The translations under genes were made by a program, and so were the position numbers. From Chiloscyllium plagiosum (Eukaryota): 64,000 nucleotides of DNA. Each line of letters begins with the position of its first letter. Position 1 is the stretch's first letter. Location of the stretch: positions 7,578,446 through 7,642,445 of the forward strand of contig NC_057751.1 of the NCBI RefSeq assembly GCF_004010195.1. The letters run 5' to 3'. A model generated the notes under the pieces. The model did no database searches and was not told the origin of the DNA. It was given only the letters and a program-made list of their open reading frames with translations. Below, in pieces: positions 3,294-51,385 of the stretch.

Positions 3294-3298
3294 GCACT

Positions 3299-27248: not shown

Positions 27249-27967
27249 TTGTCTCTTAAACATAAAAATCCATCTCTTTCTTGAATATAATCAGCAACTT
27301 GGAATCCACAGCTTCTTGTGGTCACACACTTCACAGACTGACCAGCCTCTGCATGAAGAAATATTTCCTCATCTTAATCCTCAATGGCCTAACAACCTGT
27401 CCTCAGACTGTGTCCTCTGGTTTTAAACTCCCCAACCTGGGAAAATATCCTCCCTACAATCTAAACCCCAGAACAGTGAGCTGTCAGTCCTGTTCATGTT
27501 TCAGCCAAGTTTCTGTAAAAGCTCTGAAATCCCAATCCCATGTACTTAAACACACTCTGAGTTTATCAGCCTTATCTGGAAGACCCCTTGCACTGAAATA
27601 AATGCAATTTCGTTCTTCAGAGTTACAATGTACCCTGATTCTCTCTTTTCTTTCTTTTCTAATTGGTGTGCTCTCTTCACATTCAGAACCTTCCCCACCA
27701 ACCTTTCTATTTACGCCATGACTTGTAATTCCTCCACTCTCCTCTCTATCTGTATAAAGTCTCTTTGGGTGGAACGAGCAAAGCTCCCTGCTAAGATATG
27801 GGTCCCTTTCCAGCTCGGGTAAGACCTATCCTCTTTGAACAGGTCTTTTCTGTCCCAGAGGAGACTCCAATGTGTGCAACTGGACTTGAAATCATACAGA
27901 ACTGAGATTCCAGACAACATCTATGTTGATCTTAGCTGGGCAGTTGTAGGGGTGGCACAAGTTGAAG

Positions 27968-28186
27968 GAAAAATTGAGGACTGCAGATGCTGGAGATCAG
28001 AGTCAAAAAGTGTGGTGCTGGAAAGGTGTGGTACTGTGGTCAGGCAGCATCCGAGGAGCAGGAGAGTCGACGTTTCAAGCATAAGCCTTTCATCACATTC
28101 ACGGTGAAGAGCTTATGCTCAAAACATCGACTCTCCTGCTCCTCGGCTGCTGCCTGACTGGCTGTGCTTTTCCAGCACCACACTAC
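27968..28186. mobile_element. Palindromic Penelope-like insertion (two inverted pLTR ends)
   Basis: Inverted arms meet near 28095-28103; TSD GTGGCACA(A)GTTGAAG at 27952-27967 and 28187-28201. Confidence 0.85.
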
Positions 28187-28707
28187 GTGGCACAGTTGAA
28201 GTCAACCTTCCTGAGGTAGAACAGGTAAGTGTTTGCACTTGATGCGGATAACTGGTCCCGTCTTGGAAACTGGTTTCTGCTGAGCACAGACGAGAGCATG
28301 ATTTGAGGTGGGAACTTGACTGTCAGAAAAAGCTCCCAAGAAGCAGCTCCAAAGGAATTTTGAAGTCTGGCAGCACTGAGGGACTTGCATCTCAGCAAGT
28401 GCCTTCAGCTTTGAGCCAAGGGGGAAGTGGGTGGAAGTGTGGACAAGCCCCTGATCTCTCCTCGTGATGCTCTCTTGGGTGCAAAGCTCACCACCTCTTC
28501 TTGAAAGTGGTCCCTTTGAAGACAGGTGCAGGCAGCAGCCGCTTGAGTTCCTCCTCTTCACCCCCCCCTCCATTAGCCCTCCCCACCATCACCAACGACA
28601 TCTGCCAACACGGATGAGGTTGGAGACGATGTGGTTTTGCCAAGAGGCTCCTTCACCTCATCCCAACAACAGTCTACTCACTCTCACTGGATGTCATTTC
28701 TCTGCTT

Positions 28708-29146
28708 TGCAGAGAAGATTTACCAGGATGTTGCCTGGAATGGAGAGGAAGTCGTATGAGGATAGGTTGAGAGTTCTCGGCCTTTTCTCATTGGAACGGC
28801 GAAGGATGAGGGGTGACTTGATAGAGGTTTATAAGATGATCAGAGGAATAGATAGAGTAGACAGTCAGAAACTTTTTCCCCGGGTACAACAGAGTGTTAC
28901 AAGGGGACATAAATTTAAGGTGAAGGGTGGAAGGTATAGGGGAGATGTCAGGGGTGGGTTCTTTACCCAGAGAGTGGTGGGGGCATGGAATGCGCTGCCC
29001 GTGGGAGTGGTAGAGTCGGAATCATTGGCGACCTTTAAGCGGCATTTGGATAGGTACATGGATGGGTACTTCATCTAGGTTAGAAGTTCGGCACAACATT
29101 GTGGGCCGAAGGGCCTGTTCTGTGCTGTATTGTTCTATGTTCTATG
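28708..29146 (+). mobile_element. Young CR1 3' end with open ORF2 C-terminus
   Basis: [12 protein letters not shown]...[18 protein letters not shown]...FFTQRVVGAWNALP...FKRHLD; (TTCTATG)n tail. Confidence 0.95.
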
Positions 29147-29889
29147 CTTATTGTTCCAATCCCTGCCCCAGGTTTGTGTGAGTGAGTACGCTGCAGTCAG
29201 GGAAGGAGGAGGGAGTGGGCTGCGACTGACACTGGCCAAGCTCATTATTATACCAAGGAGAAATTCATCAGCCTGCACCGGTAGTGAACGTGGCTCCCTG
29301 AGGTTGTCTAATTGCTTCTGCAATTGCAGTACCCGAACTTAATTATTTTGAACACAAGGATCAGCATACATAATTAGGACAGGGGAAAAAAAATTAAGAG
29401 GCTATCCCATGAACATTCATAAAGCAAATTAACTCCCTGCTTTTTGTGAAAAAAAATCTCTTGTGAAATATCTACATTTGTCCTGAGAATCACTTCCTTA
29501 AATACATCAAGTATAATCAACTCTAATTAAAAGGGTAAGCCTTCCATTTTACAAACATGTCACTCAACAATTAATTTGCTAGCGCCCACAGTGCCTCTCA
29601 AGGGCTCTGATAAAATGATGAGTTTGCAACACGAGAACGCAGTTCTGTATTTTATTGGTCCAGTGAACCGCGATTCATAAAGCTTCTGACCAATCATTAA
29701 CTCTGTTTCTCTCTCCAGCTGCTGTCTGGCCTGCTGAGATTGGCAGCATTTTCAGTTCTGGTGCCCGCTAAGACTGGCCACTGAACCTGTATTTCCTCTC
29801 AAGCTACATCAACTCCATCTCTCGTTTCCTATCGTGAACAGGCTCCAGGTGCCCTATCCCACACAACATTCATCTTGACCCTGACCCGA

Positions 29890-30250
29890 TCAACAATGCA
29901 TTGCATTTATCTAGCACCTCTGGCACAGCAGACCTTTGTCACAGGAGTGTCACCAAGCAAAACACTCTTGGCACACTTGGAGCTATCAGGGAGGATGAAC
30001 AGAATCTTGACAGAAAAGAGACTTATTTTTAGGGACAGGTCTAAAGGGGAAAGAGAGGTAAAGGGGTTCTTGGAAGGAACCTATGGCACCTCAGAGCTCA
30101 GAAGATGAAGGAACTGCCAGCCATGGTGGTACAATTAAAACTGGTGATGTGCAAAAACCAGGAGTCAGAAGGGTGTAGAGGTTCTGGAAGGAGGAGTCGC
30201 TGGAAGACGATGCAGAGAAAGGGAAGGGGACAATGTGGATTCTGAGTGAG
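29890..30250 (-). mobile_element. L2 LINE 3' fragment
   Basis: Similar to 10700-10890; minus-strand tail AGGTGCTAGATAAATGCAA. Confidence 0.65.
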
Positions 30251-30309
30251 CTTCTCGCTGGTGTATGACAAAGCCAATCCATGAGGTAGACTCCTCCCCT
30301 TGACTGCAT

Positions 30310-30412
30310 GCACACACACTTCCACACACACACACACACATGAACACACAAAAACAAACACATACACGCACACACACATGTACATCCCCCCAACACAACA
30401 TATACACACACA
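30310..30412. repeat. Imperfect (CA)n microsatellite
   Basis: Seen directly. Confidence 0.95.
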
Positions 30413-30529
30413 ACTTCTCATGTCATGCACTCCTCAGTCATGTGAATAATGCCTCCATTCTAACCCCATTCAGGACGGCGAAATGCAGTTCAATCTGACC
30501 TGTGGGGTCTCATAAGGGAAGGATATGGT

Positions 30530-31670
30530 AGGTCTCGAGGGAGAACTGAACAAGAAAAGGCACCTTGGTGTAGAAGTCCATAGATCCCTGAAGACATCAG
30601 TACAGATCGACAGGTTGCTGAAGAAGTTATATGGGATGCTTACCTTCATTAGCTGAGGCATGGAATATAGGAGGAAGGTAGTCTTGTTGCAACATTACAG
30701 AATATTGGTTCAGCCAGGATGAAATACTGTACATTTGTGGTCGTCTCAGTGTCTGAGGGATTGCATTAGTGAGGGTGCGGAGGAGATTCACCGCAACAGA
30801 AAGTCTCAGCTATGAGGAGAGAGAATCATCTGGGTTTGTTTATCTTGGAGCAGAGGAGGTTCAAGGGCATGTGACTGAGGTCTCCAAAATTATGAGAGGC
30901 GCAGACAGGGTAGATGTGAGAACAGAAAGAGATGACCTTACAGAGGTTTATAAAGTCATGAGGGGTATAGATAAGGTTAATCGTAGGTGCCTTTTTCTGA
31001 GAATGGGAAATTTCAAGCTCGGGGGAAAATTTTGAAGATGAGACGAGACAGATTTAAGAAAGAGAAAGAGCAAAGATTTTACACAGAAGGTAGCATGCAT
31101 ATAGAACGAACTCTCAGAGGAAGTGCTGGATATGGGCATAATTACAATCCTTAAAAGACAGTTTAAATAATGCTTAAAAGCTCATGAATAGGAGAGGTTT
31201 GGAAGGATATGGGCCAGGAAAAGCCTTAATTTGGGATTATGTTCGACATGGATTGGTTGGACCAAAGGGTCTGTTTCAGTGCTGTAATACTCCATCTACC
31301 TAAAAACAAAACTTGTCGAGAAAGCTCAGCAGGTCTGGCAGCATCTGCAGAGAGAAAGCAGGGTTAAGGTTTCAGTTCCATTGACCCTCCTTCAGATCAT
31401 GAGAATCTTCTCCTCATGGTAGATGCGTCTAAGACCAAAGGACATATATTTAAGGTGAGTATTAAGTGGCTCAGAGGAAATCTGAGGGTGGCAGAAACAT
31501 GCAACATGCTGCCTCAGAGGGTGGAGGAGGCAGAACCTCTCGTAACATCCATGAAGTATCTGAATGAGAATAGATAAGCCAGGGCATAGTCTGCTATGGA
31601 CCAAATGCAGGTAAACGGGAATAGTATAGTTTGGTGTTTGCTGGTTGGCTCAGACCTATTTCTATGCTGC
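30530..31670 (+). mobile_element. Old CR1 with a nested younger CR1 3' end (~30925-31295)
   Basis: Two successive EVxKxMRGxDxV motifs; old element resumes near 31400. Confidence 0.75.
31302..31397 (-). mobile_element. Penelope-like pLTR end with decayed hammerhead motif
   Basis: Minus strand: CTGAAGGAGGGTCAATGGAACTGAAACCTTAAC...CAGATGCTGCCAGACCTGCTGAG. Confidence 0.65.
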
Positions 31671-32334
31671 ACGACTCTCTACGACTTTAGGCTTTGTGTT
31701 AACATTGGAAGGGACTTTTGGTGGGAGTTTACAGAACTATAAAAGCACACATAAAAGGAACACCTTGATTGAACATCAGAGGAGGGGACACTTTATGAAG
31801 GAGGCATGTCATTTTGTTACATTATCATTCCCTGAAGAGAGAATTACTGTTGAGTCGACCTGAAAATGGATTTTACATTGCCAACTAAAGAATAAATGAA
31901 AAAGGTGAATAAAAAGGCTGATCAAGAAGATAACACAGACACCGTTTCATCAGTCTTTTCGGCAGCCTCTTAACAGCTGAAAGAACATGCATTTACAAAG
32001 CATCTTATCACATTTCTCACCGCTTCCTGAAATGCGTTGGCAACAATGGACTCTGAAATGTATTCAGTGTTGACATCTAGGTGAATGTAGCACTGATCAA
32101 ATGACTTTGAGATTGTCTTAAAAAAATGTTTATTCTGCTCTTCCTTGAGGCACTGGGAGAATGTCCTGAAACTCACTCCCTCACAGTACTGTGGACACAC
32201 TGAAACTATACAAACTGCAGTGCTTCAAGGAGTGAGCTCAATGTCAGTGTCTCAGTTAGGAAAGGGCAGCATGAACAAACAAAGATAAGAACAAAACTTC
32301 ATCATCACTGGCAAGGTTGGAATTTATTGTCTGT

Positions 32335-32913
32335 TGGTATGGAGCAGACGAGAACCCCTCAAAATATATTAAGAAGGTAGCCCAGACCCTAACTTATTCT
32401 GATTTTAAAGGTAAATGTCAGATGCTGTGTTCCTGGTGCAATCAAACTACTCCAGGTTAAGCCAAACACATTTGATTCAAACATGATAGTTAATAAACAA
32501 CCAAAGAAGAACTTGGAATAACTTCACTCTAGTGAAAAACTTAACAGAATCATAGATACAGCAACAATTACTAATTAACTGTTCCAACACAGTGACATCC
32601 CATAAACAAAAAGGCAAATTCAGCAAACAGATTTTGTCTCACATGTGATCCAGGAGCTCTGGCGCAGAAGCCCAAGCTTTTGGCTGGAACTGAGAGAGGG
32701 GAAAATAGCTTCCACTCCTTCAAGATCCCAGCAACAAGTGCCAAAAGCTAACTAAAAATCCTGGATCTGTGACACCCACTCAAGCTGCTTCTATTGTTCC
32801 AACTTAAAAAAAAACCAAGGCCTCACAAGTTGTTTATCTTCCCACAGACTGTTCAGCACCTATTCCCTACTCTCTCTCTCTCTAAAGGAAACATACCTCA
32901 TAGCATAGTCAAA
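32335..32913 (-). mobile_element. Near-complete solo-LTR-like element
   Basis: AACCCCTCAAAA..AAGAAGGTAGCCCAGACCCTAAC is shared with 13804; distal half is shared with 2241-2711. Confidence 0.68.
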
Positions 32914-33177
32914 GCGGCTCTTGCTGTTATGTGCAGGTGGTGGGAAGTTTACATTTAACATTTTTCCATATTCCCAAAATATGAGACAATTGGAATCTTG
33001 AGCTGTGGTCAAATGAGGCCTTGGGTTAACATCTAAGCTGAGAGATGAAATTTTGAACATTGTTGCTTTCCTTTGGCCATGTACCTATGTGTCAGCCTAG
33101 AATTTCTACATAAGGGACTGAAGTGAGACTTGTACACACGACTTCCAAAGTGAGGGGCTGACCACAAACCCCTCATG

Positions 33178-33327
33178 GCAGGCAGGCTCCCTGCCTCTAT
33201 TCCTGATGAAGGGCTTTTGCCCGAAACGCCGATTTTCCTGCTCCTTGGATGCTGCCTGACCTGCTGTGCTTTTCCAGCACCACTCTACTCCAGACTCGGG
33301 TTTCCAGCATCTGCAGTCCTCGTTTTT
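33178..33327 (+). mobile_element. Short Penelope-like pLTR insertion
   Basis: 17-bp TSD ACCACAAA(C/T)CCCTCATG at 33161-33177 and 33328-33344. Confidence 0.85.
33199..33234 (+). ncRNA. Minimal type I hammerhead ribozyme motif (mutated cleavage triplet)
   Basis: CTGATGA (33203-33209), A, GGGC-TTTT-GCCC stem II, GAAAC, then GCC where other copies have GTC. Confidence 0.7.
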
Positions 33328-34577
33328 ACCACAAATCCCTCATGTTTTCAAATTAAGCTTGAAGAAAATTTTTATGGACAAATTTCAAAGCCAGTGTGAT
33401 GCCAAATGTATAGAGCATATGTTTCAGCAATCGATTGAGTAGAACAAACAGTATATTCCCTTCATTGCTTTTAATAGGTGGACTACAGATGCTACTAAAT
33501 AAGGGCGCAAAGGCAAAACCCAAAGCAAGCAGCTTGATATGATTCCATGAGTGGACAGCACTTATTGAAAGGTAGCTAAACGAACAACTGATTTGGGATG
33601 GTCAGTGGAGGCCACAACATGGCTGATGAATGCTTGCCAGAAATTACATCCATTCACATGCATGGACCTCCTCCTCAATGCAAACAAAAGGAATATGTTC
33701 AAGCTTTCTGCTTCTTTCAATTATCCAGGAGCTAGGCAAGCCAAGAGTTCCCCAGTGCTTGCTCCATAGCAACACCTCAACCACAGTCCAAGTGCCAAAT
33801 GATCAGCATCCCTTTCTCCTTTGGTATAAGCTGTGGTGATATTCTGAAATCTGGCATGCTTACATTTATCCTCAAGCGTGCAAAATGTAAAGTTCAGAGC
33901 CATGTTTCTTTTTTTCAACAATACCAGTCTCTCCCAGTTTCACACAAACCATTAACAAAGGTGGTCAAACGTTGGACCAGTCCCCAATGTGTTCTGCACT
34001 GACTCAATGATATCCCTCCCGCACACAAACATCAGCAAAGCTCTAGTGCACTCACGAAAAACAACATTCACTTCCTGAATCAACACATCAGTCACAAGAG
34101 CCGATTCCAGCTCAGACCTGTGACCTCGTCAAGAGCACTGCACAAGAAATGTACAAGTTCTAGGTTCTTCGGGTTGAGATTATAATTGCAAAAGCATGAA
34201 AAAAAGACAACTTAGCAATTGAAAAGTTCAAATTGCAAGAGGTAACTCTCCCCTTTGCTATAATGTGGCATTCCGCAGGTGACAAGTGACATTTAAATAT
34301 ATATATTTAAAATAATTGGTGTGACCCAGAAATCACACTGCAGTCGGACTGTTCAAATCAGTACCATAAATCAAACTGGTTTTCTCCTAAGATGGATGTG
34401 CAAGGTGCTAATCAACATTCTTTCAGCCAAAACACTGTGACCTTCAGAACAACATCGATCTGATTGTTTTCTTGTCTCAAAGGTGCTTGAAAATAGTTTT
34501 GTTCTCACCCACTCATGGTGACAGCAAGTAATGGGCTTGTATACGGCATTTCATTGTGAAGGGTCGGGTGTGTCAAA

Positions 34578-35352
34578 GACTCATTGAGATGTACAGCACG
34601 CAAGCAGATCCTTCAGTCCAACTCGTCCATGTCGACTGTATATCCTCGATTAATCTAATTCGCATTTTCCAGCATTTGGGCCATATCCCTCTAAATCCGT
34701 CCGATTCATGGACCCATCCAGATGCCTTTTAAATGTTGTAATTGTACCAGCCTCCACCACTTCCTCTGGCAGCTCATTGCATACACGCACCACCCTCTGT
34801 GTGAATAAGTTGTCCCTCAGGTCCCTGTTAAATCTTTCCCCTCTCACCTTAAACCCATTTCCCCTGTCCTGGGGAAAAGACCTTGACTATTCACCCTAGC
34901 CATGCCCCTCATGATTTTATTAACCTCTATAAGGTCACCCCTCAGCTTCTAGTGCTCCAGGGAAAACAGCCCCAGCCTGTTCAGCCTCTCTTGTAGCTCA
35001 AACTCTCCAACCCTGGCAACATCCTTGCAAGTCTTTTCTGACCGGTTTCAATTTTCACAAAATCTTTCCTATACCAGGGAGAACAGAACTGAACACAGTA
35101 TGCCGAAAGTTGCCGACCCAATGTCCTGTACAACTGCAACATGACCTCCCAACTCCTATACTCGATGCACTGACCAGTAAAGGAAAGCATACCACCAAAT
35201 GCCTTCTTCGCTACCCTGTCTACCTGTGACTCCACTTGCAAGGAACTATGAACCTGCACCACAAGGTCTCCTGGTTCGGCAATAGTCCTCAGGATCTTAG
35301 CATTAAGTGTATACGGCCTGCCTTGATTTGCCTTTCCAAAATGCAGCACCTT
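34578..35352 (-). mobile_element. CR1 3' fragment
   Basis: LHFGKANQGRPYTLN...LQLYRTLGR..CVQF; RGERFNRDLRDNLFTQRVV. Confidence 0.92.
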
Positions 35353-35662
35353 AGATGTGATGGTTTCAAGAAGACAAATTGTTTTTGTTTATTTGGCTGA
35401 TGAGTGCCTGTCGTTGGCTTTTCCTGTTCATACGATACTCTGCCTGTTCATATCGGTCCTGAGGAGTGCAGGATGGAAAACTCTGACAACATATCTCTTT
35501 TCTCAGTGAGAGAGAAACAAAATACCTACAAAACCTTTTTTTCCAAGATTGGGGTCAACAAAATTCAGAGCAGGACAAAAGCAAACCATCAGGCTCCTTC
35601 ATGTTCATGCCAGATAAATAGAAATGACCAAAGGGGAGAAAGGGGGAAAGAGAAAGCCATGT

Positions 35663-35688
<26 letters not shown>
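35663..35688. repeat. (GA)n microsatellite in a purine-rich tract
   Basis: Seen directly. Confidence 0.95.
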
Positions 35689-35693
<5 letters not shown>

Positions 35694-36879
35694 GAGGGAC
35701 AGAGAGGAGGCACGGAGAGGACGGAGGGACAAAGATGGATGCAGGGAGGGATGGACAGAGGAGGTGGGGGAGGGGGGGATAGAGAAAGTGCAAGGAGAAA
35801 GAATCATGGAATCATACAGCAGAAAAGAGGCCCTTTGGCCCATCGGCCCATCAAGTCTGTACTGCCAAAGCTTCATTCAATCTCACTTGCCCCACCTTCC
35901 AACACTAGCCTTGAATGTTATGTCATTTCAAGTGCACACCCAAGTACTTTTTAAAGAGACAGTCGCAGGCAGAAAGAGAGAGGGAAGAGAGGGAGAGAGA
36001 CCAATTGATCATTAATCACGTCTGGATCTGAACAGCATCTGCAAGATATTCAACCAGCTGCAGCTTCACAAACAAGACTCCTCCTGGCCTCATCCAAAGC
36101 CCAGATGATGCTTTTCTGCCATGGGTCACAGGAAGGCAGACAGGAGCAGGAACCTGACTCTAAGACTTCAAACACATGGAGCATAGTTTTAACAGCACTA
36201 CACATTGACTTGAACATTCAAGCAGGGACTGCAAAACTGGATTCGTCTTTGCATCACTGACTGATTCATTCTCACTCAGAAACTGGCTGTAGGTTTGCTG
36301 TAATGTCATCGGGTCCACACTCCTGGACATGCACAGAATTCCCACGTACCACATTACCTCCCATTCAATCCCAATGTACAGAATTGCTAATCCAGGCATG
36401 ATAATGCAATGTATATTCCAGGCATGAAATTATCTCCAAGTTACTGACGTTTTCAACATTCAACAGGGCCCAAACCTTACATGATCAGAGAATCAACTTT
36501 CTGCTTCCTGCGAAAGACGATTAATCAGGTCCTGCCTTCTGTGATTTGGCAATTCCAAGTGACTGGCCCAAAATGAAAGTGATCTTACAACAACTTGATG
36601 CACATACCTCACGAGGTAAGTGGTCCTTTAAGGTACAACTATTAACAAGAATCTTTGGTTGAGATAATGTCCTATGCACCTCAGAAAAATCAGCAAGCAC
36701 TTCACCTTCAGTTACACAGAACTGCATTTGCGAAAAAACTGAGGCTATTTTGTGCACAGCAGGAGTCTACGAAACAGCAGTGCTCTTTCAATACAAGAAT
36801 GGAATTTCAACTCAGGCAGAATTCAACCATCACCACAACATCTCCCCAGCCTCACCAAAAGATAATAAACCTGTGACCC

Positions 36880-37155
36880 TTGCAGCCGAGAGGAACAAGA
36901 AGTGAGATGAGGAGGAATTTCTTGAACAGGAAGGTGGTGAATCTGTGGAACTCAGTGCTGCAAAGGGCTGTGGAGATCGATTCACAGAATGGATTTTTGA
37001 CAGAGACACACTCGACAGGCTCTTGAGTAGTAAGGGGGGGTCAATGGTTATGGGGAGAAAGCAGCAGAATGGGGTTGAGAATGGCCATGATCGAATGGTG
37101 GAGCAGGCTCAATGGGCTGAAAAATCTAATGTTGCTCCCACAGCCTGCGGTCTTA
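36880..37155 (+). mobile_element. CR1 3' fragment
   Basis: GAGATGAGGAGGAATTTCTT...GGTGAATCTGTGGAA...GAATGGTGGAGCAGGCTCAATGGGCTGAA. Confidence 0.75.
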
Positions 37156-37399
37156 AAAGGTAGTGGAAAAGTGAAGGATTTCCAGACCACAATTCAACTT
37201 GCCCACATGCCGTCCAGAAAACTATGTAGTTTGTGGCCACGTCTCGTGGTTGAACTCTTCCACAACTATTGTTGAGGATGTATGTTAGGTGAAAGAGTTC
37301 AGGAAAAAAAAAATTATCCAGTTCCTCTCATCCCATTGGGAATCTGAAGAGTTTTAATCAGAGGACTTATCTGGTAAATCTCTTTCAAGACATCCAGCG

Positions 37400-37850
37400 T
37401 CAGAGAGTCATACAGACCCTTCGGTCCAACCACGCCATACCGACCATAATTCCAAACAAAATTAATCCCATCTGCCTGCAATTGGCCCAAGTCCCTCCAA
37501 ACATTTCTTATTCATGTACTTATCCAAACGTCTTTTAAATTTGGTAACTGTACCCGCATCCGCCACTTCCTCTGTAAGTTTGTTTCACACACGAAACACT
37601 ATCTGTGTAAAAAAAAGCCTATCGTGTCTTTATTAAATCATTCTCCTCACAACTTAAAAGTATGCTGCCTCGTCTTTAAATAACCTCACCCTGCCATTCA
37701 CCTTATTTATGTCCCTCATGAGTCCATAAACCTCTCACCAAGTCACCCCTCAGCCTCTCTTGTAAACTCAAACTGCCTGTTCCTGGCAACGTCCTGGTAA
37801 ATGTTTTCTGAACCCTCCCCAGTTGAATAATAACCTCCTTCCAATTACAA
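37400..37850 (-). mobile_element. CR1 3' fragment
   Basis: LGRVQKTFTRTLPG..RLRGDL; tail CAGACCCTTCGGTCCAAC. Confidence 0.82.
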
Positions 37851-41667: not shown

Positions 41668-42243
41668 GCATTGAGTATAGAGTTGGGAGGGTACCTTGCA
41701 CATGTACAGGACATTGGTTAGGCCACTGTTGGAAAGTGTTCAGTTCTGGTCTCCCTTTCTATAGGAAAGGTGTTATGAAACTTCAACGTGTTCAGAAAAG
41801 ATTTCAAAGTCATTGCCAGAGTTGGAGGGTTTGAGGCTGAACAGACTGGGGCTGTTTTCCTTGGAGTGTTGGAAGTCAAGAGGTGACGTTATAGAGATTT
41901 GTAAAATCATGAGGGGCATGGATAGAGTGCCCAGGGCAGGGGTGCCCAAAACTGGAGGGCATAGGTTCAGGGTGAGAGGGGAAAGATTTAGAGGTAACCT
42001 TAAGGATTTTTTCACCCACAGGCGGTGGTGCGTGTGTGGAATGAGCTGCCAGAGGAAGTGGTGGAGGTTGGTACAATTACAACATTTAAAAGGCATCTGG
42101 ATGGATATATGAACAGGAAGGGATCATAGGGATATGGGCCAAGTGCTGGCAAATGGAACTAGATTAGGTTGGGATATCTGGTCAGCATGGACAAGTTGGA
42201 CTGAAGGGTCTGCATCCATGCTGTACATCACAATGACTCTATG
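41668..42243 (+). mobile_element. CR1 3' fragment
   Basis: PELEGL..RLGLFSLE..RGDVIEICKIMRGMDRV..GHRFRVRGERF. Confidence 0.9.
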
Positions 42244-42991
42244 AAAGCGGGGTCTCTTCAGGACTGAGGAAATAGGAGCAGAATTCACCTCATTGAGCCT
42301 GCTCCATCATGGGCTGACCCACGTAATTCTTCTGCTCCATCCCTTTATCTCTGTCTGTCAGGGAACCTCTCAGTATCGACCAAAATTCACAACAGAGATC
42401 ACTCTTCTTTGCACCAACATCCCCCCCCCACCCCCCAAACCCCATCAGCGTCTCATAAAGGCAACTGTTGTTACAATTGGTCTTGATCCCTTCGATACTC
42501 TCAATGCCACACCCAGCTCTCTTATCGTCTCCATGCTCATGAAACAAACAAATCATTCTTCACAATATGGTTTCATAATTGGCGTCATTCAGTTGAGCTG
42601 AGACTCATGATCCCCTTATTTGCTTTCACTCGGATCAGCGTGGGGCCTCTAAACCTCCTTCCAGCTTCCCCAAACGACGTGGTGAAATCCCACAGTTTTG
42701 TTTCCTGAGAAAGGAGGTAGTTTTGAAGTCAGGTGGTGATGCAGGTGATTCAGGGTCTTGAGCTTGCTCTGCCAACATGCACAACATTCCACATACACAA
42801 CACCAGAACTACAGACTGCAATGGTCAGGACTCCAACCTTGACAAACACAGGAATATGCTGGAGAAATATTGGCAACATCTGCGGGGCAAGAAACAGAGT
42901 CCATGTTTTCAGTACGGTTCGAGCCTCTTTCAGAACCCAGAGGGGTTGGGAAATAGGGTTTTTTTCTGAACATCTTTTGAGAGAGGCAGAG

Positions 42992-43489
42992 AGGAGAAAG
43001 TGGGGACGTTGGAGATCAGTGTTGAAAAATGTGACGCTGGAAAAGCACAGCAGGTTCCGGGGAGCACCGGTGGAGGAAGATCGAATCCAATGCGCATCCC
43101 TGGTGCTGTGAGGTAGCAGTGCTAACCACTGAGCCACCGGGAATCTTCGGCATTTATTGCATCTCATGGTGTTTTGTACTGTGGGACTTAGGGTTTCAGT
43201 GTTGATCCTGTGTGGTTGGAGGGTTCCAAGGCAGAAGATGAGGTGTTCTTCGTCCAGGCATTGGGTGGCTTGGACTTGGTGGTGGAGGAGGCTCAGGACT
43301 TGCATGTCCTTCATGGAGTGGGAGGGGAAGTTGAAGTGGTCGGCCACAGGTCGGTGGGGCAGTTTGGTGCATGTGTCCCAGACATGATGCGAGCTGGCAA
43401 TCTGTCTTCCCAATGTAGAGGATTCCACATCGAGAGCAACGGGCACAGTAGATGAAGCATATGGATGTACAGGAAAACCTCTGCTGGAT
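42992..43489 (-). mobile_element. Penelope-like element: GIY-YIG C-terminus + pLTR end, with a captured 120-bp foreign segment
   Basis: PVADHFNFPSHSMKDMQVL...EEHLIFCLGTLQPHRIN; terminal GAGAAAGTG..GGAGATCAG; possible TSD remnant GAGGCAGAG at 42983-42991 and 43490-43498. Confidence 0.82.
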
Positions 43490-43789
43490 GAGGCAGAGGT
43501 AAATGACTGAAGAAGGAGAAAAGAAAGATGTTAAATGTGCATAAACAATGGTGTGAAAGTGGGACGAATGGGTCCTCTATACTCAAAATAAAGTCAACAA
43601 GATGCAGAAACAAGGGAGTGGGGATGTGAATTTGGCCACATTATCAATGTACCTTCTCTGGGGCATTGTCAAATCCTGCAGTAAGCATTGAATGGAGGGT
43701 TTCTGACAGGGGGACAGACACCCACTCCATTACATGTCTTCCATATTGATAGAGTATGAGTTTTAAGCTGCCATCATCATATAGAACCA

Positions 43790-44121
43790 AAGAATTCATA
43801 CAGTGTGGAAACAAGCCATTTGGCCTATTAGTCCACAGCAAACCTTCCAAAGAGCATCCCACCTAGACTCCCCTTCCCTATTCTTGTAACCCTGCATTCC
43901 CCATGACTAACCCACTTAGCCTGCACATCCCTGCACACAATAGCATGGCCAATCCACCTAACCTGCACATTTTTGAACTGTGGGAGGAAACCAGACCACC
44001 CAGAGGAATCCCAAGCAGACACGGGAAGAACATGCAAACTCCACGCAGACAGTCATCCAAGTGTCAAATCCAACGTGGATTCCTGGTGCTGTGAGGTAGC
44101 AGCGCTAACCACTGAGCCACC
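43790..44121 (-). mobile_element. HE1/V-SINE
   Basis: Reverse A box GCTAACCACTGAGCCAC, V core and tail. Confidence 0.9.
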
Positions 44122-44689
44122 GGGAATCTTTGGCATTTATTGCATCTCATGGTGTTTTGTGCTGTGGGATTTGGAGTTTCAGTTATCATGGAATTAAAAT
44201 GCAAGGGCACACAAAGATTTGCATCAACTCCAGATTCAGATTTCATGCGCATTGTTCTGTATTCCAGACCAGACTCACTACCTGAAAAATATGCAAAAGG
44301 ATCAATCACAAGTTCACATTCATTAAAAATAATAAAGAAAGTTCACCACAACTCTCAAACTGAAGACGAGTAGTCATAGCAACAGAACACAGTGACTATG
44401 CATGCATCTTCCAGGTCCTGCTACAGATGGTCCTTTGAATGCAAGATGCAGCATTTCTGACTGGGGAGAGAGATTGGGCACCTACATTTGGTTCCTTAAA
44501 TATCAGAATATGATACAGACAGGAGTTGGTTGTTGTCCAATGTCAACTCTGCCTCAGTCTAACTCAAATGATAATTTCTGTAGCACAATCTGACAAAGAA
44601 GGACAATGTTGTGATGGTTTTCTCAGATTTTCATGTCCGATCACTCATATTTTCTCTCCCATACTCCTGCAGGGTTCAACTCTTCAGGA

Positions 44690-45690
44690 TTTACAAGAAA
44701 GCTCTCTTTCTGCTCTGCAATCCCAGGACAGGTACAGCATGAGGTTAGATACAGAGCAAAGCTTCCTCCATGCTATCTCCATCAAACACTCCCTGGACAG
44801 ATACAGCTCAGGATTAGATGGAAAATAAAGCTCCCTGCACACTGTCCCAGAACAGATACTGTATGTGGTTAGATACAGAGTAACCCTCCCTCTACACTAT
44901 TCCCCCATCAAATATTCCCAGGACAGGGAGGAGAAAGTGAGGACTGCAAATGTTGGAGATCAGAATCAAGAGTGTGATGCTGGAAAAGCATAGCCGGTCA
45001 GGCAGCGTCTGATGTCATCTACTGCATCTGTTGCACTCGGTGTAGTCTCCTCTACATCAAGGAGACACGACACCTTCTTGCAGACCGTTTCAGAGAACAT
45101 CTCTGGGACACCCGCACCCACCAACCCCATTGCCATGGCTGAACACCACAACTCCCTCTTCCACTCTGTCAAGGACATGCACTGCCAAACCATTATCACC
45201 CGACGCCTGGAGGAGGAACACCGACCCTTGGGACCCTGCAACCACACAGGATAAATGTGGATTTCAACAGCTTCCTTACTTCCCTCTGTCCACATTACCC
45301 CAGTCCCAAGCCTCCAACTCAACACCGCCCTCTGGACCTGTCCATCACACCCCCCTCTGACCTATCACCTTCTCCTTCACCTTCATCCACCTATCGCTTT
45401 CCCAGCTACCTTTCCCCAACCCCACCCCTCTCCCATTTATCTCTTAGCCCCGACCCATAAGCCTCATTCCTGATGAAGGGCTTCTGCCCAAAACATCGAT
45501 TCTCCTGCTCCTCGGATGCTGTCTGATCGGCTGTGATTTTCCAGCACCACACTCTCGACTTATTCCCAGGACAGGTGCAGCACAGGGTCAGATACAGAGT
45601 AAAGCTCCTTTTACAGTGTCCCTTCAAATACTCTAATGGAAAATTCAGCAAGAGTTAGACTCAGAGTGAAGTTCGAAACACTATGAAGCT
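44690..45690 (+). repeat. ~68-bp minisatellite array split by a Penelope insertion
   Basis: Unit CCCAGGACAGGTACAGCA..GGTTAGATACAGAGTAAAGCTCCCT..ACACTGTCCC.ATCAAACACT. Confidence 0.82.
44928..45560 (+). mobile_element. Penelope-like element: inverted pLTR arm + GIY-YIG remnant + pLTR with hammerhead motif
   Basis: VIYCICCTRCSLLYIKET (GIY-YIG motif); CTGATGA at 45470-45476; perfect TSD TATTCCCAGGACAGG at 44913-44927 and 45561-45575. Confidence 0.9.
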
Positions 45691-45979
45691 GTCCCAGATG
45701 AGAAAGGAAAAAAGGCGTTAGGAAAAAAAAGTAATGTTTCACCGGCACAATCCCATCAGATACACCCAGCAGAGTGAAGTTCCTTGTGAAAAAAGAAGAG
45801 AGAATGAAAGAATGGGAGGAGAAAAGCTTGCACGGCTGTGAACAATAAACAGGAGCACTGAGTCTCATTGGATAGCTCCTGCAAAGAGCTAGGCAAGGCA
45901 GAATGGGGTGAATGGACTTCTTTTGCACTGGTAACATTCCAGGATTCATTGAACCTGGGACAAATAAATAGGAATGAAT

Positions 45980-46164
45980 TAGAATCCTGACAGCGAGGAA
46001 GCAGGCCATTCGAGACCACATCAAATCCCATCCCACCCCGCCGAAAGGCAACTCACCTCAACCCACCCCTTCTTTCCTATCCCTGTAACTCTACATTTCC
46101 CATGGGCGATCCATCCTAACCTACACATCTTTGGACTGTCGGAGGAAACCGGAGCACTCGCATG

Positions 46165-46204
<40 letters not shown>

Positions 46205-46288
46205 TGTGCAAACTCCACACTGTCCACAGATCGAAACCAGATCCCTGGCGCTGTGAGGCAGCAGTGCTAACCACTGAGCAACCAGGCC
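45980..46288 (-). mobile_element. HE1/V-SINE with internal (CA)n expansion (~46167-46200)
   Basis: Reverse head GCGCTGTGAGGCAGCAGTGCTAACCACTGAGC; V core. Confidence 0.88.
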
Positions 46289-47059
46289 ACCCTGACTATT
46301 CCTGGCTGTATATTACAAGGAATGTTTAACACAAATTTTCTCACCTTATTTAGATGACAGAGGAAATAGTATTGAGTCCAGATAAAGGAAATGATACTTG
46401 TTAGCCAGGCAGGAGGACAGATGGTGCCCTTCCAGCTATTCATAAAAAAAAGCAATATTCTTTCTTTTATCCAGATGCCCACAACAAGCAAAAAGACAAT
46501 TTTTTTCTAATGATCTCTGCGGGAAATCCTCTTAAACTTAAGTTAGTAATTAAAAATGGCTTGGCCATTGAATTGGGGCCAATTGTGCATGACGCACTTT
46601 TAATTAAATTCTCTGCTTACCTTCAGAATTGCTGCTTCAGTCTGACAAGGGAGAAAAAAAAATAAGTGGAGAAGGAAAGCTGTTTTTTTTTTCGGTCTGC
46701 AGCGTGGGCCGGTGTGGGAGGTGAGAAGATGGCATGAATCAAGCCTGTAACTCAGGGTGCAAATCGAAAAGAGGTCTGAAATTAAGCCAATGCTTCACCA
46801 TATGTGTCCAGTGGATTCCAACTGGTGTAGCTTGAAATGTTACTTTGGCAATTCTTGACCATAAAAAAGGGCCGTGTGACCTTGGACTGACCTGACAACC
46901 AGGAGCTAGATTTGTTCACTGCCTGCCCTCTTGGTGTCCAATTCCAGTGAAGGGATCCGTGCTGGGTGCATCGCCTTCTCAAAGGTTGGTTTCCGTATTT
47001 GGCGTAAGGGGTTGCACGTCTAATTCAGAGATTTGGAGGAGCTCCCCCTGTCTGGGGAG

Positions 47060-47320
47060 GAGGAGGGGGCACTGAGTCTGTGGAATTCTTCACTGCAGAG
47101 GGATGTTGAGGCTGGGTCATGAAATGCATTCAAGTGTGAGATCGACAGATCTCTAATCAGTCGCAGAATCAGAGGTGACGGGGGATGGGGGGGGGGGGGG
47201 GGGGGGGGGGGGGGAAGTCAGGAAGGTGGAGCTGAGGGTTATCAGATTGGCATGATCTCATTGAACGGTGGAGCAGACTCGATGGGCTGAATGGTCAACT
47301 TCTGCTCCGACAACCTACGG
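47060..47320 (+). mobile_element. CR1 3' end containing a G28 run (47187-47214)
   Basis: CTGTGGAATTCTT...GTGGAGCAGACTCGATGGGCTGAATGG. Confidence 0.78.
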
Positions 47321-47589
47321 AGGTTGGGATGATCTGGATTAAGAGGAGACGTGACTTGGTGTGATAATTTTCTGAACAGGTCAGAGAAAACGCACAGTGG
47401 TCAAGTTAGGCCCATAAGCCTCTTTCTCCTTTGAGTCAAAGTGCTGCACACCTGAATTCGGCGACTCGTCCCATGACTTGGAAAGCTGCTCACAGCCCCG
47501 TGGCTTTCCACTTCAGTTCTGGAACAACCCATCCTGCCTCAATACTGGGCTGACTGTGCGACCCCATCACTGATCAATCAATTCACGGA

Positions 47590-47830
47590 GAGGCACTGGC
47601 ACTGGACAAGAAACCCAGAACCCCAGCCAAATACTGTGGAGACATGGGTTCAAGACCCACCATGTCAGATGGTGAAACTGAATTCAACAGACAAAAATAA
47701 TGGTGATCATGTAACTATTGTCCACTGTCTTAAAACTTTGGTTCACTGATGTCCTTCAGGGAAGGGAATCTGCCATCCTTACCTTGTCTGGCCAACTTGT
47801 CACTCCAAACCCACCACAATATGGTTGCAT
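47590..47830 (+). mobile_element. tRNA-derived SINE family B (3'-truncated)
   Basis: GGGTTCAAGACCC B box; core GGTTCACTGATGTCCTTCAGGGAAGGGAATCTGCCATCCTTACC. Confidence 0.78.
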
Positions 47831-47844
47831 CATTTTTTTTTCCC

Positions 47845-48167
47845 TTTAATCATTAATTGGATGATGGCTAGGCAGTATTTATTGCCCATCCCTAATTACC
47901 CAGAAAGCAGTTAAGGGTCTGGAGTCACATGTGACCCAGGCCAGGTAAAAGGATGGCAGTCACCTTCCTTTAAGGACATTCGGTACCCAGATGGGTTTTG
48001 CCAAGAACCAACAATGGATCCATGGTCATCATTAGATTCTTAATTCTGGATATTTATTGAATTCAATTTCCACCATCTACCATGATGGAATTCGAGCCCA
48101 GATAAGGAGGGCATCTGGGTCTCTGGATTAACAGTCCAGCGATAATGCCACTAGGCCATCATCTCCC
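47845..48167 (-). mobile_element. SINE family B, full length, antisense
   Basis: Reverse complement of 50903-51385 and 61886-62225 (ATTTATTGCCCATCCCTAATT; TCTGGAGTCACATG). Confidence 0.82.
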
Positions 48168-48531
48168 TCATACAATCCCTACAGTGCAGAGGCAGGCCAT
48201 TCAGCCCATCCATTCCACATCAAAGGGCACTCCACCCAGACCCAACAACCCCCAACCCTATCCCTGCAGCCCTGCATTTCCCATGGCCAATCCACCTGAC
48301 CTGGACATCTTTGGGCTGTCAAATATTGGCTTGAGCTGAATAAGATGCCCATCTTCCGGGAGGCACAGGAGACCCGTCACGTCTTGACCCGCTCCCAGTT
48401 GCAGTTCACGTGTCCACTTGCCAATACACCCCCTCAGATGCGCTTGAATGATCAGACCATCACTGAGTAATCGAACAGGAGCGGGAGACCATTCAGCCCC
48501 CTGTACCTGTACCGGTGAAGAGGAACAGCTC

Positions 48532-48905
48532 CATAAGACATAGGAGCAGAAAACAGGCCATTCAGCCCATCGAGTCTGCTCTGTCATTCAATCATCGGGA
48601 GGTGGAGGAATCGGCTTCTCCACCTCCTGCTGCTGCCTGGCTTGCTGTGTTCTTCCAGCCTCCTGCCTGTCTACTTTGGATTCCTGCAGTTGTTTGGTCG
48701 ACTGCCATTCAATCATGTCTGATAAGTTTCTCAAGCCCATTCTCCCACTTTCTCCCCTTAACCCTTGATATGTGAGATCCTATCTATCTCCGTCTTACAT
48801 ATACTCAATGACCTGCCTTCCACAGCCTTCCATAGATTCACTGCTCTCTGGCTGAAGACATTTCTCCTTATTGCCGTTCTAAAAAGGTCTTCCCTTTTCT
48901 CTAAC
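48532..48905 (-). mobile_element. CR1 3' end hosting a Penelope insertion
   Basis: CATAAGACATAGGAGCAGAA..AGGCCATTCAGCCCATCGAGTCTGCT tail. Confidence 0.8.
48596..48701 (+). mobile_element. Very short Penelope-like pLTR insertion with 5' fold-back
   Basis: GGAGGTGGAG...CTCCACCTCC inverted; TGCTGCCTGGCTTGCTGTGTTCTTCCAGC; 15-bp TSD CTG(T/C)CATTCAATCAT at 48581-48595 and 48702-48716. Confidence 0.78.
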
Positions 48906-49394
48906 AGGGTCCCAGGACGTGCACATTTTTAAAAAATGCAAGGCGTTCAATCTTGAGAAACAGGAGTCCGGTCTGAATGACGAAAAAAATCTAGAAATGA
49001 AGTGCCGGCCCCCAATTTCTTCTGCTCCTCCTAAAATTCTGGACCTTTCTGGACAGACCGAGGTTCTGAGGTGCTGACAGATCTTTTCCAATTTACTGAA
49101 CTGCAGTGAATCTGACCTGGATGTTCCCCAAAATAGCCAATGGGGCTATCAGCAAGTGGGTCGCAGTAGGTAGCCATTAGCAGTGGGAATCTGCCCCCTT
49201 CCCCCTGAACGCGACTCCTCATCATCCTGCAAACAGCAGGAGAATTAACTATGAAACTCTTTCCTGGAGGTAAAACAATGTCTGATTAACTGCTTTCTAT
49301 CTGAAAATGAAAGATTTCTTTCCGCTTCCCCCCCACCTTAGCTAAGGGATATGCAGCAAAGCAATTGTTCCATTTCAGCTCCCTTCACATGAGG

Positions 49395-49738
49395 CTTACA
49401 TGGGGTTGACGTTCAGAATCTTCTTCCAAGAGTTGAAAAGTCTCATATTAGAGAGCGTGCATTTTAGGTGAGACAGGAAAAGCTCAAAGGAGATGTGAAG
49501 GGCAAGTTTTTTTTTACAGACAGAGTGGTAGGTGCCTGGAACGCGCTAACAGGGGTAATGGTGGAAGCAGATATGATAGGGCAGTTTAAGGGGCTTCTAG
49601 ATAAATACATGAATGTCCAAAGAATGGAGAGACATGGACCATGGGCTGGCGGAAAAGATTAGTTTAACTTGGCATCATGCTTGGCACAACATCGTGGGCT
49701 GTAGGGCCTGTTCCTGTGCTGTGCTTTCCTATGTTCTA
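49395..49738 (+). mobile_element. CR1 3' fragment
   Basis: KGDVKGKFFFTDRVVGAWNAL..FKGLLDKYM. Confidence 0.88.
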
Positions 49739-50902
49739 CATAAATGCATGGCCAATTTATTCTCAATGAATGCCACTTTGAAAAACTCAATGCACTTTTA
49801 ACGCTTGGAGATCAAGATTCACTTGGTCCAAATAGAGAGAGAGCTGGAGGAACGCAGCAAGTCTGGCAGCAGCTGCAGAAAGGCAACAGGCTGAACATTT
49901 CGAATCCAGCATCGTAACAGGGTAATTTCCATTTTCCAGTGTCCACAGTTCTTTGCACTTATTTTAAGCTTTACATGGCTCCGTCCAGAGTCCGACTTGG
50001 ATGTACTCATGCCCAACTTAATGGGAGCATGGGGGAAAGAGGTGAGTGCCTGTAGTTACAGTGCAGATCAACCTTGATCTAAGTAAATGGTGAAATGATT
50101 TTTAGGGGCTTAAGCAGCAGCAGTACCACAGCCCCCCACCCCCCACCTCACCCTACCAATAGTTACACTCCACCGCCTAGTACCCACCCTGACATGAACA
50201 GCAAGAAATTAGTGAATTTCCCACCCTTCAGACTTTTATTTCGTATTTATTTCTTCATTTTGTTATTTATTTCCTGAACCTATGAAGTTTAATCAAGTCT
50301 TTCATGCGGAACTTCATCAACAGTTTTTGCAAAAAAATTGCAAAAGTCAAGCAGGGGCATCACATGACTTGTCCAGTGGGAAAAGTGACATTGGGAATAG
50401 ATAGATTTAAATGGGGTATCAAGGATTTTTAAAATCAATTTATTCAATAAGTAGAAGTAGGAAGGAGAAAGGGTGATGGGAAGTGAAGTGCAAATAATTG
50501 GGAAAAATTAAGAATTCATTGGACAACATAGACGTCAAGTCTTGAATCTCAGATAGACACAAAAATCTGAAGGTCAGCTCTCTGGAGACCCATGTCTCAA
50601 ACCGTTGAAAGAATCCAGCAGCCTGCAGTTGAAGTGTAAATGTGTGTATGCATCTCAGAAAGCTTTTTAAGCCAAGATGCCATTTGCAACACACTGTCAA
50701 TACATCCTGAATCTGCATAAAGCCTCAGTCTGTGCAGGGCTCTGATGTTGTTTCCATATCTCGGAGACTCTTAACCTTTCTCTCACTTTCCCAAATAGAT
50801 AGCCTGCCAAATGACAAAAACCTGCGTCTCCATTCCTCACTTTCTCGTTGTCTCATTTATCTCAACTGCAGTCAGTACTGGTCAAATTTTGTTACCTTAC
50901 TG

Positions 50903-51385
50903 GGGGACATGATGGCTGAGTGTTATTATTAGCGGACTGTTCATCCAGGCACTCTGGGGACCCCGGTTCAAATCCTGCCAGGGTAGATGGTGGAACTGGA
51001 ATTCAATAAAAATCCAGAATTAGGAGTTTACTGATGTTCGTGAATCCATTGTAGATTCTTGGGGGAAAAACCCATCCAGTTCACTGATGCCCTTTAGGGA
51101 AGGAAACTGCTATCCTTACCTGGTCTGGCCTACCTACTGAAGGGCTTATGCCCGAAATGTCGATTCTCCTGCTCCTCGGATACTGCCTGACCTGCTGTGC
51201 TTTCCCAGCAATGCATTCTTGACTCTGATCTCCAGCATCTGCAGTCCTCACTTTCTCCTGGTCTGGCCTACGTGTGACTCCAGACCCACAGCAATGTAAT
51301 TGACTCTTGACTACTCTCTGTGCAATTAGGGATGGGTAATAAATGCTGGCCAAGCCAGAGATGCTCACATCCCGTGAATGAATTT
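50903..51385 (+). mobile_element. SINE family B, full length, split by a Penelope insertion
   Basis: B box GGTTCAAATCC; core; tail GGGATGGGTAATAAATGCTGGCC..CACATCCCGTGAATGAA. Confidence 0.85.
51134..51256 (+). mobile_element. Short Penelope-like pLTR insertion starting within the hammerhead core
   Basis: TGAAGGGCTTATGCCCGAAATGTCGA...; perfect TSD CCTGGTCTGGCCTAC at 51119-51133 and 51257-51271. Confidence 0.9.

Follow-up and report, generated by a model that had tools for sequence, protein, structure and literature searches.

Six short inserts flanked by direct repeats lie within 64,000 nucleotides of the Chiloscyllium plagiosum genome (contig NC_057751.1; this whole stretch is here called the window). 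The locus raises the question of whether the repeats are the products of insertion and, if so, which kind of element made them and how its target was cut. A sequence-only reading had described five such inserts (e1 to e5) as Penelope-like units with a consistent 15–17-bp target-site duplication, and had proposed a fixed, sequence-independent staggered cut of about 15 nt and mobilisation of mini-elements in trans.

All five flanking repeats exist where that reading had placed them (Table 1). The paired copies enclose 219 nt in e1, 150 in e2, 633 in e3, 106 in e4 and 123 in e5, and are perfect in e3 and e5, whereas one mismatch separates those of e2 and of e4 and one indel those of e1. Their anchored scores of 12.5–15 are beyond chance, as a score of at least 12 was reached by none of 3000 random position pairs. 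An unanchored scan of the window returned 33 direct repeats scoring at least 12, including four of the family pairs (e1 was missed owing to its indel). Unanchored repeats of this length are thus not rare in the window, and adjacency to family ends serves as the criterion. In a contig of a related organism (B), position 33169 is a T, with which the e2 pair becomes perfect. Minisatellite periodicity was considered as the source of the e3 repeat and rejected, as both copies have a variant start that is absent from the other units printed.

The host repeats invaded by e3, e4 and e5 have paralogues in which the target is present as a single copy. The repeats at these three sites were therefore made by insertion and are true target-site duplications. 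At e4, contig joints from 48588 to 48719, with 9 letters between them, lack exactly 121 bp, which corresponds to the insert plus one target copy. No empty orthologous site was seen among the matches listed in the read and contig comparison, which covered 19.2 kb with e1 outside; filled sites appear in the contigs listed for e2 and e3 (organism B) and for a further insert, e7 (organism C).

Table 1. Positions of target-site copies and element parts at the six insertions, in window coordinates.
Feature	Position	Strand	Remarks
e1 left target-site copy, 16 nt	27952..27967	+	final 2 nt coincide with the element's terminal letters
e1 inverted pLTR arm with decayed putative minimal hammerhead core and ~35-nt tail	27966..28095	-	nhmmer E 5e-32; arm alignment
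e1 direct pLTR arm, tail-less end, head-to-head with inverted arm	28096..28186	+	70/91 columns identical
e1 right target-site copy, 15 nt	28187..28201	+	
e2 left target-site copy, 17 nt	33161..33177	+	
e2 5'-truncated direct copy with tail	33178..33330	+	putative hammerhead core at 33203, 4-bp stem II, cleavage triplet mutated
e2 right target-site copy, 17 nt	33328..33344	+	first 3 nt at position of family's 3' end
e7 left target-site copy, 9 nt	42983..42991	+	adjoins element's 3' end
e7 pLTR remnant with tail	42992..43080	-	nhmmer E 7e-17
e7 captured 120-bp copy of window 44064-44183	43081..43200	.	blastn 90.8%, E 5e-44
e7 frameshifted GIY-YIG endonuclease remnant	43195..43489	-	Pfam, HMMER, alignment, tblastn
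e7 right target-site copy, 9 nt	43490..43498	+	starts with first base beyond coding match
e3 left target-site copy, 15 nt	44913..44927	+	within ~70-bp minisatellite unit
e3 inverted pLTR arm with tail	44929..45012	-	nhmmer E 8e-20; extra base at 44928
e3 broken GIY-YIG remnant	45005..45283	+	Pfam PF01541 E 0.016 (below cut-off); tblastn E 1e-12
e3 3' UTR and direct pLTR arm, putative decayed hammerhead, tail-less end	45284..45560	+	
e3 right target-site copy, 15 nt, perfect	45561..45575	+	
e4 left target-site copy, 15 nt	48581..48595	+	within multi-copy host repeat
e4 short copy, other subfamily, 14-bp fold-back at start	48596..48701	+	nhmmer E 1.5e-14; hairpin z -5.8
e4 right target-site copy, 15 nt, one mismatch	48702..48716	+	
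e5 left target-site copy, 15 nt	51119..51133	+	within dispersed host repeat
e5 direct copy, truncated inside putative hammerhead core	51134..51259	+	tail end 51258/51259 is family's genome-wide 3' end
e5 right target-site copy, 15 nt, perfect	51257..51271	+	first 3 nt common to element end

Judged by their sequences, the inserts derive from a Neptune-like Penelope-like element (PLE) as 5'-truncated copies, some of them joined head-to-head. Two of the six (e3 and e7) retain GIY-YIG coding remnants, for which the Pfam matches (E 0.016 and 0.16) are both below cut-off, and which match a whale-shark RT+GIY-YIG protein by tblastn (E 1e-12 and 3e-13) and align with the C-terminal PLE-type GIY-YIG endonuclease, a type marked by cysteines between GIY and YIG, of shark and ray proteins. 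Searches with a 65-aa remnant retrieved 90 relatives from the full HMMER library and none by a word-index protein search. A tail of about 35 nt is present on five arms of the main family and missing from the direct arms of e1 and e3, so that each of these head-to-head units combines one tailed and one tail-less arm in the arm alignment. Loose ends of raw reads accumulate at 51258 (10,555 reads) and 51259 (23,812 reads), where the flanks are random (agreement 0.33); the 3' end of the family is thereby fixed at this point. From the reads we estimate that the end module is present in roughly 10^5 copies. A putative minimal hammerhead core with a 4-bp stem II lies in e2 and is decayed in the other arms, and Rfam returned no hammerhead, only two chance matches. 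The coding remnants, tail, pLTR arms and candidate core uphold the Penelope-like identity and the GIY-YIG link proposed earlier. The accompanying view that all five inserts are of one pLTR-end type needs correction for e4, which belongs to a different subfamily and agrees with the other inserts in 34/63 to 50/96 aligned columns.

No RT or linker was found in the window copies, which are truncated downstream of the linker, and our search for an intact RT+GIY-YIG master copy found none. Partial RT plus GIY-YIG occurs in relatives from whale shark (P0091) and sea urchin (P0069), with RVT_1 matches (E 9e-5 and 0.005) below cut-off. A zebra-shark protein (P0092) has an RT motif followed by GIY-YIG and then a tail, in which 9 of 14 residues match, by eye, the translated hammerhead region of e2/e3. 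Most of the longer aligned relatives (P0012, P0027, P0039, P0069, P0071 and P0081; not P0008) carry a CX2-5CxxC linker, a hallmark of Neptune/Nematis (PMC8557442), and the name Neptune-like rests on this motif in the relatives rather than on an RT tree. Pattern scans of viral, metagenome and genome contigs and phage records, and protein-based locus scans, gave no further copies.

The sixth insertion, e7 (minus strand, 42992-43489), is a family member that had been overlooked. Its 9-nt repeat adjoins both element ends, and its captured segment stands where the 3' UTR and hammerhead would be. Stretching the repeat to 15 nt introduces four mismatches, for which p is about 0.04 given that the captured segment has diverged by 9%. 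The pair at 3155/3299, previously offered as a sixth candidate, was dropped: it is a 10-nt perfect repeat whose score is equalled by 8 of 3000 random pairs, and the enclosed DNA was matched to the family by neither blastn nor nhmmer and has no hammerhead motif. At six hammerhead-like stubs that are older and belong to other subfamilies, no adjacent repeat scored above 9; these duplications may have decayed, or may have been short or absent from the start.

The apparent duplication lengths are 15-16, 17, 15, 15, 15 and 9 nt (e1, e2, e3, e4, e5 and e7), and the described consistency of 15–17 bp thus extends to five of the six strong family members and breaks at e7. Overlaps of 2-3 nt with the element end occur at three of five scorable junctions, and allowing for them gives 13-16, 14-17, 15, 15 and 12-15 nt, in which 15 is the value common to all five. 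Five of six lengths fall within a 3-nt range, with p 0.04 if that range holds 40% of lengths and 0.11 if it holds 50%; the range was picked post hoc, on six insertions from one window. Because 15 fits the five overlap-corrected copies and e7 has 9 nt, the data suggest that the target is cut with a preferred stagger of about 15 nt rather than a fixed one. Target sequences are GC-neutral (33-67% GC), and their independence of sequence is only rough, as the target begins with C plus a pyrimidine in five of six cases, like the last letters of the element. PLE duplications in the rotifer Adineta are 8, 9 or 10 bp or none (PMC3846280), and PLE duplications have been termed variable (bioRxiv 10.1101/2021.04.23.441226). 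Our literature search found no survey of PLE duplication lengths and no shark PLE duplications; the accessible text of PMC8969392, PMC1564403, PMC12910113, PMC6515669 and the Poseidon study PMC11167929 gives no such lengths, which supplements, Repbase/Dfam or subscription papers may hold.

How far can these lengths be explained otherwise? Integrators with a fixed stagger, such as DDE transposases and integrases, leave one invariant duplication length, which the six insertions do not show. It is nevertheless conceivable that a dimeric RT-GIY-YIG enzyme makes a strictly fixed 15-nt staggered double cut and that chance overlap and later mutation account for the deviations. Such a cut would agree with the inclusion of 15 in the allowed range of five copies, with e3, both of whose ends are primed 3' ends and whose repeat is exactly 15 nt with zero overlap, and with the Poseidon protein, a predicted dimer that cleaves both strands (PMC11167929). 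The mismatches needed to bring e7 to 15 nt and the shorter rotifer duplications make it unlikely, and we do not retain the fixed cut of the sequence-only reading, although six insertions are too few to separate a fixed from a peaked length. We consider it improbable, too, that the inserts are a separate non-autonomous family, of solo-pLTR, retrozyme-like or SINE-like type, that is transcribed independently and moved in trans. The abundance of the end module would suit such a family, as would the finding in Adineta that pLTR cis-sequences are enough for trans-mobilisation (PMC3846280), the presence of PLE-derived non-LTR retrozymes in a chondrichthyan (bioRxiv 10.64898/2026.07.22.740005) and the starts of three arms, at most about 5 nt from the putative hammerhead core. 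However, no two of the six window copies share both ends, their 5' ends all differ, e3 and e7 retain GIY-YIG DNA, and 17,412 reads continue upstream of the hammerhead into common sequence (agreement 0.59). The hammerheads are mutated or cut, and tandem arrays of the unit, which the definition of a retrozyme requires, are absent from 13 TRF rows. These observations speak against mini-elements mobilised in trans as a general account; a short RNA template could still have served for some copies.

Very improbable is a third alternative, in which integration of the RNA ends was the work of a different enzyme, one known for a signature of about 15 bp (a LINE of the L1/Tx1 or RTE type), or in which the host set the length. 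Duplications of human L1 and its passengers do peak at 14-16 bp (PMC2912911, PMC4245944), but none of the six junctions has a poly-A tail or an AT-rich L1-type nick motif, and none of five SINE copies in the window (approximate ends) has a flanking repeat scoring above 7. The combination of tailed and tail-less ends with head-to-head arms is, moreover, specific to PLEs (PMC8557442, PMC11167929).

The inserts are therefore probably ordinary insertion products of endonuclease-bearing Neptune-like PLEs whose second nick is preferentially offset by about 15 nt. The repeats, the single-copy host paralogues, the family end, the architecture and the coding link are direct observations; we infer that both strands are nicked, that the offset is a preferred one, that microhomology assists priming, and how the 9-nt duplication arose. 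In this mechanism, the RT-GIY-YIG protein would nick one target strand and copy RNA from an internal pLTR start site, with or without the ~35-nt tail, priming often being aided where 2-3 nt pair with the last letters of the RNA. The second strand would be nicked at the preferred distance, leaving 3' overhangs. Should the second 3' end also prime, the product would be a head-to-head unit in which just one of the two arms has a tail (e1, e3); otherwise the cDNA would be 5'-truncated and joined (e2, e5, e7) or folded back (e4). Fill-in would duplicate the target, and trimming or repair at the 5' joint could yield a shorter duplication (e7). Published PLE units similarly include a 5'-truncated inverted copy and a 30-40-bp tail at a single end (PMC8557442, PMC3846280). 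For LINEs, an element-specific preferred second nick combined with host trimming has been described, at about 15 bp in L1 (PMC4245944), and short duplications are enriched among 5'-truncated L1 copies (PMC2912911).

A more tentative possibility is that both target strands are nicked about 15 nt apart before copying begins, probably by a dimer of the shark Neptune-like PLE enzyme, and that both 3' ends can prime. If so, head-to-head copies would record the geometry of the enzyme as a sharp genome-wide 15-bp peak, and shorter duplications would be confined to repaired 5'-truncated copies. This would supply a measured, clade-specific second-strand rule for a class of retroelements whose duplications have been called variable, with some 10^5 copies available as test material.

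The kind of element and its architecture have been described before, and we did not find the ~15-bp preference in print. Among the closest known systems is Pen2a_Av of Adineta vaga, an insertion unit of an endonuclease-positive PLE (PMC3846280, PMC8557442); the shark duplications are mostly about 15 nt rather than 8-10 bp, and the shark family has far more copies, which are also much shorter (PMC3846280). Neptune elements share the CX2-5CxxC linker before GIY-YIG seen in most longer relatives (Arkhipova 2006, as cited in PMC8557442), whereas their suggested microsatellite bias (bioRxiv 10.1101/2021.04.23.441226) is not seen at the six shark sites. The Poseidon element PAc of Anolis carolinensis resembles the shark family in its pLTR hammerhead and two internal start sites bracketing the tail, and its purified protein, a predicted dimer, cuts and extends both strands, which fits the head-to-head shark units (PMC11167929). 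PAc belongs to another clade, however, and its preference for AT-rich cuts and its RNA priming sites without homology to the cut DNA in vitro fit poorly with the GC-neutral targets and short overlaps in the shark (PMC11167929). That study leaves the second-strand cut and the completion of integration unvalidated (PMC11167929); an abundant vertebrate PLE family with clean duplications would offer a large natural data set on nick-to-nick distance and two-ended priming, and the six insertions of this window serve as a lead toward a genome-wide length count.

Metazoan PLE hammerheads and non-LTR retrozymes resemble the shark copies in their type I minimal core, which lies in the pLTR and forms stem II but no stable stem III (PMC4209133, bioRxiv 10.64898/2026.07.22.740005). 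By definition, non-LTR retrozymes form tandem arrays in which two or more successive units each carry a complete hammerhead (bioRxiv 10.64898/2026.07.22.740005); the shark copies differ in being dispersed and non-tandem, with decayed cores. Human L1 has a poly-A tail, unlike the shark PLE junctions. Its APE endonuclease is unrelated to the GIY-YIG enzyme of PLEs. The likeness to L1 lies instead in the 'specific-cleavage model', with a preferred second nick at about 15 bp and shorter duplications in some 5'-truncated copies (PMC4245944, PMC2912911).

A profile built from eight arms, the copies of the Penelope-like element (PLE) terminal module (pLTR) found inside the insertions (alignment A1), recovers six insertion units in the window at a unit cut-off of E < 1e-10. 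Five of these (e1-e5) were described in the sequence-only reading, and their direct repeats have the coordinates, lengths and differences that it gave; the sixth (e7) had been missed. The repeat pair 3155/3299, proposed there as a further candidate, lacks both a family match and a hammerhead motif and is removed from the family. The segment concerned (3155-3308) is an AT-rich 134-bp stretch bounded by 10-nt repeats and is unrelated to the pLTR family. Six older stubs resemble PLE ends of other subfamilies; two carry a clear hammerhead-like core and stem, and none has an adjoining repeat scoring above 9 or a detectable long flanking repeat. The surrounding sequence is repeat-rich vertebrate DNA (44% GC; one N gap, 55755-56470) and the proteins most similar to it come from whale shark, zebra shark, skates and rays. 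It includes broken ORFs at 19780-24145 that we take to resemble L1-type ORF1 and an ORF2 remnant.

PLE insertions and hammerhead-like stubs in the window, with the duplication lengths allowed for each insertion
Feature	Coordinates	Strand	Arrangement	Duplication (nt)
e1	27952-28201		head-to-head; one tailed and one tail-less arm	13-16
e2	33161-33344		direct, 5′-truncated	14-17
e3	44913-45575		head-to-head; one tailed and one tail-less arm	15
e4	48581-48716		another subfamily; 14-bp fold-back at start	15
e5	51119-51271		direct, 5′-truncated	12-15
e7	42983-43498 (profile match 42992-43489)	minus	direct, 5′-truncated	9
Stub	~29680	plus	older, weaker, shorter	
Stub	31395	minus	older, weaker, shorter	
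Stub	~39240	plus	older, weaker, shorter	
Stub	40228	minus	older, weaker, shorter	
Stub	42913	minus	older, weaker, shorter	
Stub	49905	minus	older, weaker, shorter	

All of the inserts have in common a terminal module composed of a decayed minimal hammerhead and an optional extension of ~35 nt. The hammerhead core and a 4-bp stem II are present at 33203, and an Rfam search returned no hammerhead match. The extension, previously termed the terminus, is the PLE tail, which is reported to span 30-40 bp (PMC8557442). Because raw reads stop loose at 51258 (10,555 reads) and 51259 (23,812 reads) with unrelated flanks, the 3′ end of the family was fixed at 51258/51259. Depth is 44,038 at 51222 versus 0.58 in four repeat-poor bins, and read depth gives ~77,000-88,000 copies at 85% likeness, as an order of magnitude only. 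Between the two arms of e1 (27966-28186) and of e3 (44929-45560), 70 of 91 and 41 of 55 columns are identical; the arms diverge more than the flanking duplications, a difference for which two separate RNA templates, or else rapid decay at CpG sites, could account. The interior of e7 (43081-43200) is a same-orientation 120-bp copy (90.8%) of 44064-44183 that stands in place of the 3′ UTR and hammerhead. The captured source, a SINE end with its unique flank, lies ~575 bp past the 5′ end of e7, and the copy looks like local template capture. A fragment at 52646-52851 resembles the PLE 3′ UTR of e3, is joined upstream to LINE-like coding DNA, and has neither a pLTR end nor a flanking repeat.

The link between the inserts and a GIY-YIG endonuclease is supported by broken GIY-YIG DNA retained in e3 and e7, where Pfam matches are weak (E 0.016 and 0.16), and by tblastn matches of a whale-shark RT and GIY-YIG protein to these remnants (E 1e-12 for e3 and 3e-13 for e7). 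The e7 coding piece matches 90 library proteins. In a zebra-shark protein, RT and GIY-YIG are followed by a tail whose residues match those obtained by translating the hammerhead region in e2 and e3, and this continuity is why enzyme and end module are treated as one family. Six of seven aligned relatives have the CX2-5CxxC linker of Neptune/Nematis, a motif that would place the family in a Neptune-like clade. Public skate and ray gene models (P0006, P0020, P0027 and P0039, with names such as neuromedin-U receptor 1 and mucin-2) finish in this PLE endonuclease domain, probably through annotation read-through into insertions.

In 30-nt windows anchored on element ends, the repeats of e1-e5 score 12.5-15, and a score of at least 12 was reached by 0 of 3000 random pairs. 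Since 33 repeats score at least 12 window-wide when unanchored, mostly micro- or minisatellites or common SINE/LINE motifs, the evidence for duplication is adjacency to family ends. A perfect 16-bp direct repeat (41206-41221/41730-41745), of which one copy sits within a LINE fragment and its partner in unique sequence preceding a T run, has no PLE link and is possibly the product of local templated repair. True target duplication is established for e3, e4 and e5, as paralogous hosts carry the target once: three copies for e5 (62095, 47782 and ~47945), host copies such as 37125-37050 for e4, and, for e3, other minisatellite units without the variant start common to both flanking copies. Public contigs of two relatives join 48588 to 48719 with nine letters between, so that exactly 121 bp are absent, equal to the e4 insert plus one 15-nt copy; because depth is high, this joint is read as paralogous. 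Among the contigs listed, the e2 and e3 sites are filled in a related organism (B) and the e7 site in another (organism C). One organism B contig has T at 33169, abolishing the sole mismatch of e2, and an organism C contig matches the window. Orthologous empty sites were absent among the matches listed (4 of 24 listed runs; 19.2 kb of the window).

The last two to three letters of the element overlap the first letters of the target in e1, e2 and e5, for which reason lengths are given as ranges; e3 and e7, the other two scorable insertions, show no overlap. The proposal of a ~15-nt stagger is favoured: the single value 15 fits five of the six insertions, and the duplication of e3, an insert with a primed 3′ end at each junction, measures exactly 15 nt. 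A fixed cut is not supported, given the 9 nt of e7 and the small sample. For five of six to fall within a 3-nt window, chosen post hoc, p is 0.04 if that window holds 40% of lengths and 0.11 if it holds 50%. One copy of the e7 repeat runs up to the base immediately preceding the family terminus, and the other begins at the base directly after the coding match. Its score was matched by 20 of 3000 random pairs in the looser 30-nt null, but the exact fit at both ends is a stricter criterion than this null; stretching it to 15 nt requires four mismatches (p ~0.04 at 9% divergence). Sequence independence of the target holds roughly, as targets range from 33 to 67% GC with no long motif in common, but five of six start with C plus a pyrimidine, which likely indicates some priming homology or weak target preference.

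These features are probably best explained by target-primed reverse transcription, which the element's own RT-GIY-YIG protein would perform. The second nick would fall preferentially ~15 nt from the first, head-to-head units would result from priming at both ends, and some truncated units would have undergone trimming. A second nick specific to the element, together with trimming by the host, is described for LINEs, with a sharp L1 peak at 15 bp (PMC4245944), and short duplications are reported to be commoner in 5′-truncated L1 (PMC2912911). That the 15-bp signature is made by L1, or is host-wide, is unlikely: poly-A tails are absent from the insertions, and none of five SINE copies in the window, with ends set approximately, has a long flanking repeat. 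The suggestion that these are a discrete family of mini-elements is not supported, given that all 5′ ends differ, two copies are coding and 17,412 reads run upstream into common sequence. The window also has no tandem units, unlike retrozymes, which are reported to require them (bioRxiv 10.64898/2026.07.22.740005). Mobilisation in trans has already been described for RNA that carries a pLTR (PMC3846280) and may be the source of some copies.

PLE elements, their hammerhead (PMC4209133), tail and inverted architecture are already published, and the insertions are of a known kind, correctly caught; the one testable quantitative lead is the ~15-bp preference. PLE duplications are described as 'variable' in general (bioRxiv 10.1101/2021.04.23.441226) and as 8-10 bp in a rotifer (PMC3846280), and no PLE-family survey with a ~15-bp mode was found in the literature searched, with Repbase, supplements and subscription papers outside the search. 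The purified Anolis Poseidon protein, which is predicted to be dimeric, is reported to cleave and extend both strands, starting at two sites on either side of the tail; unlike the sites here, its described preference is AT-rich and involves no primer homology (PMC11167929).
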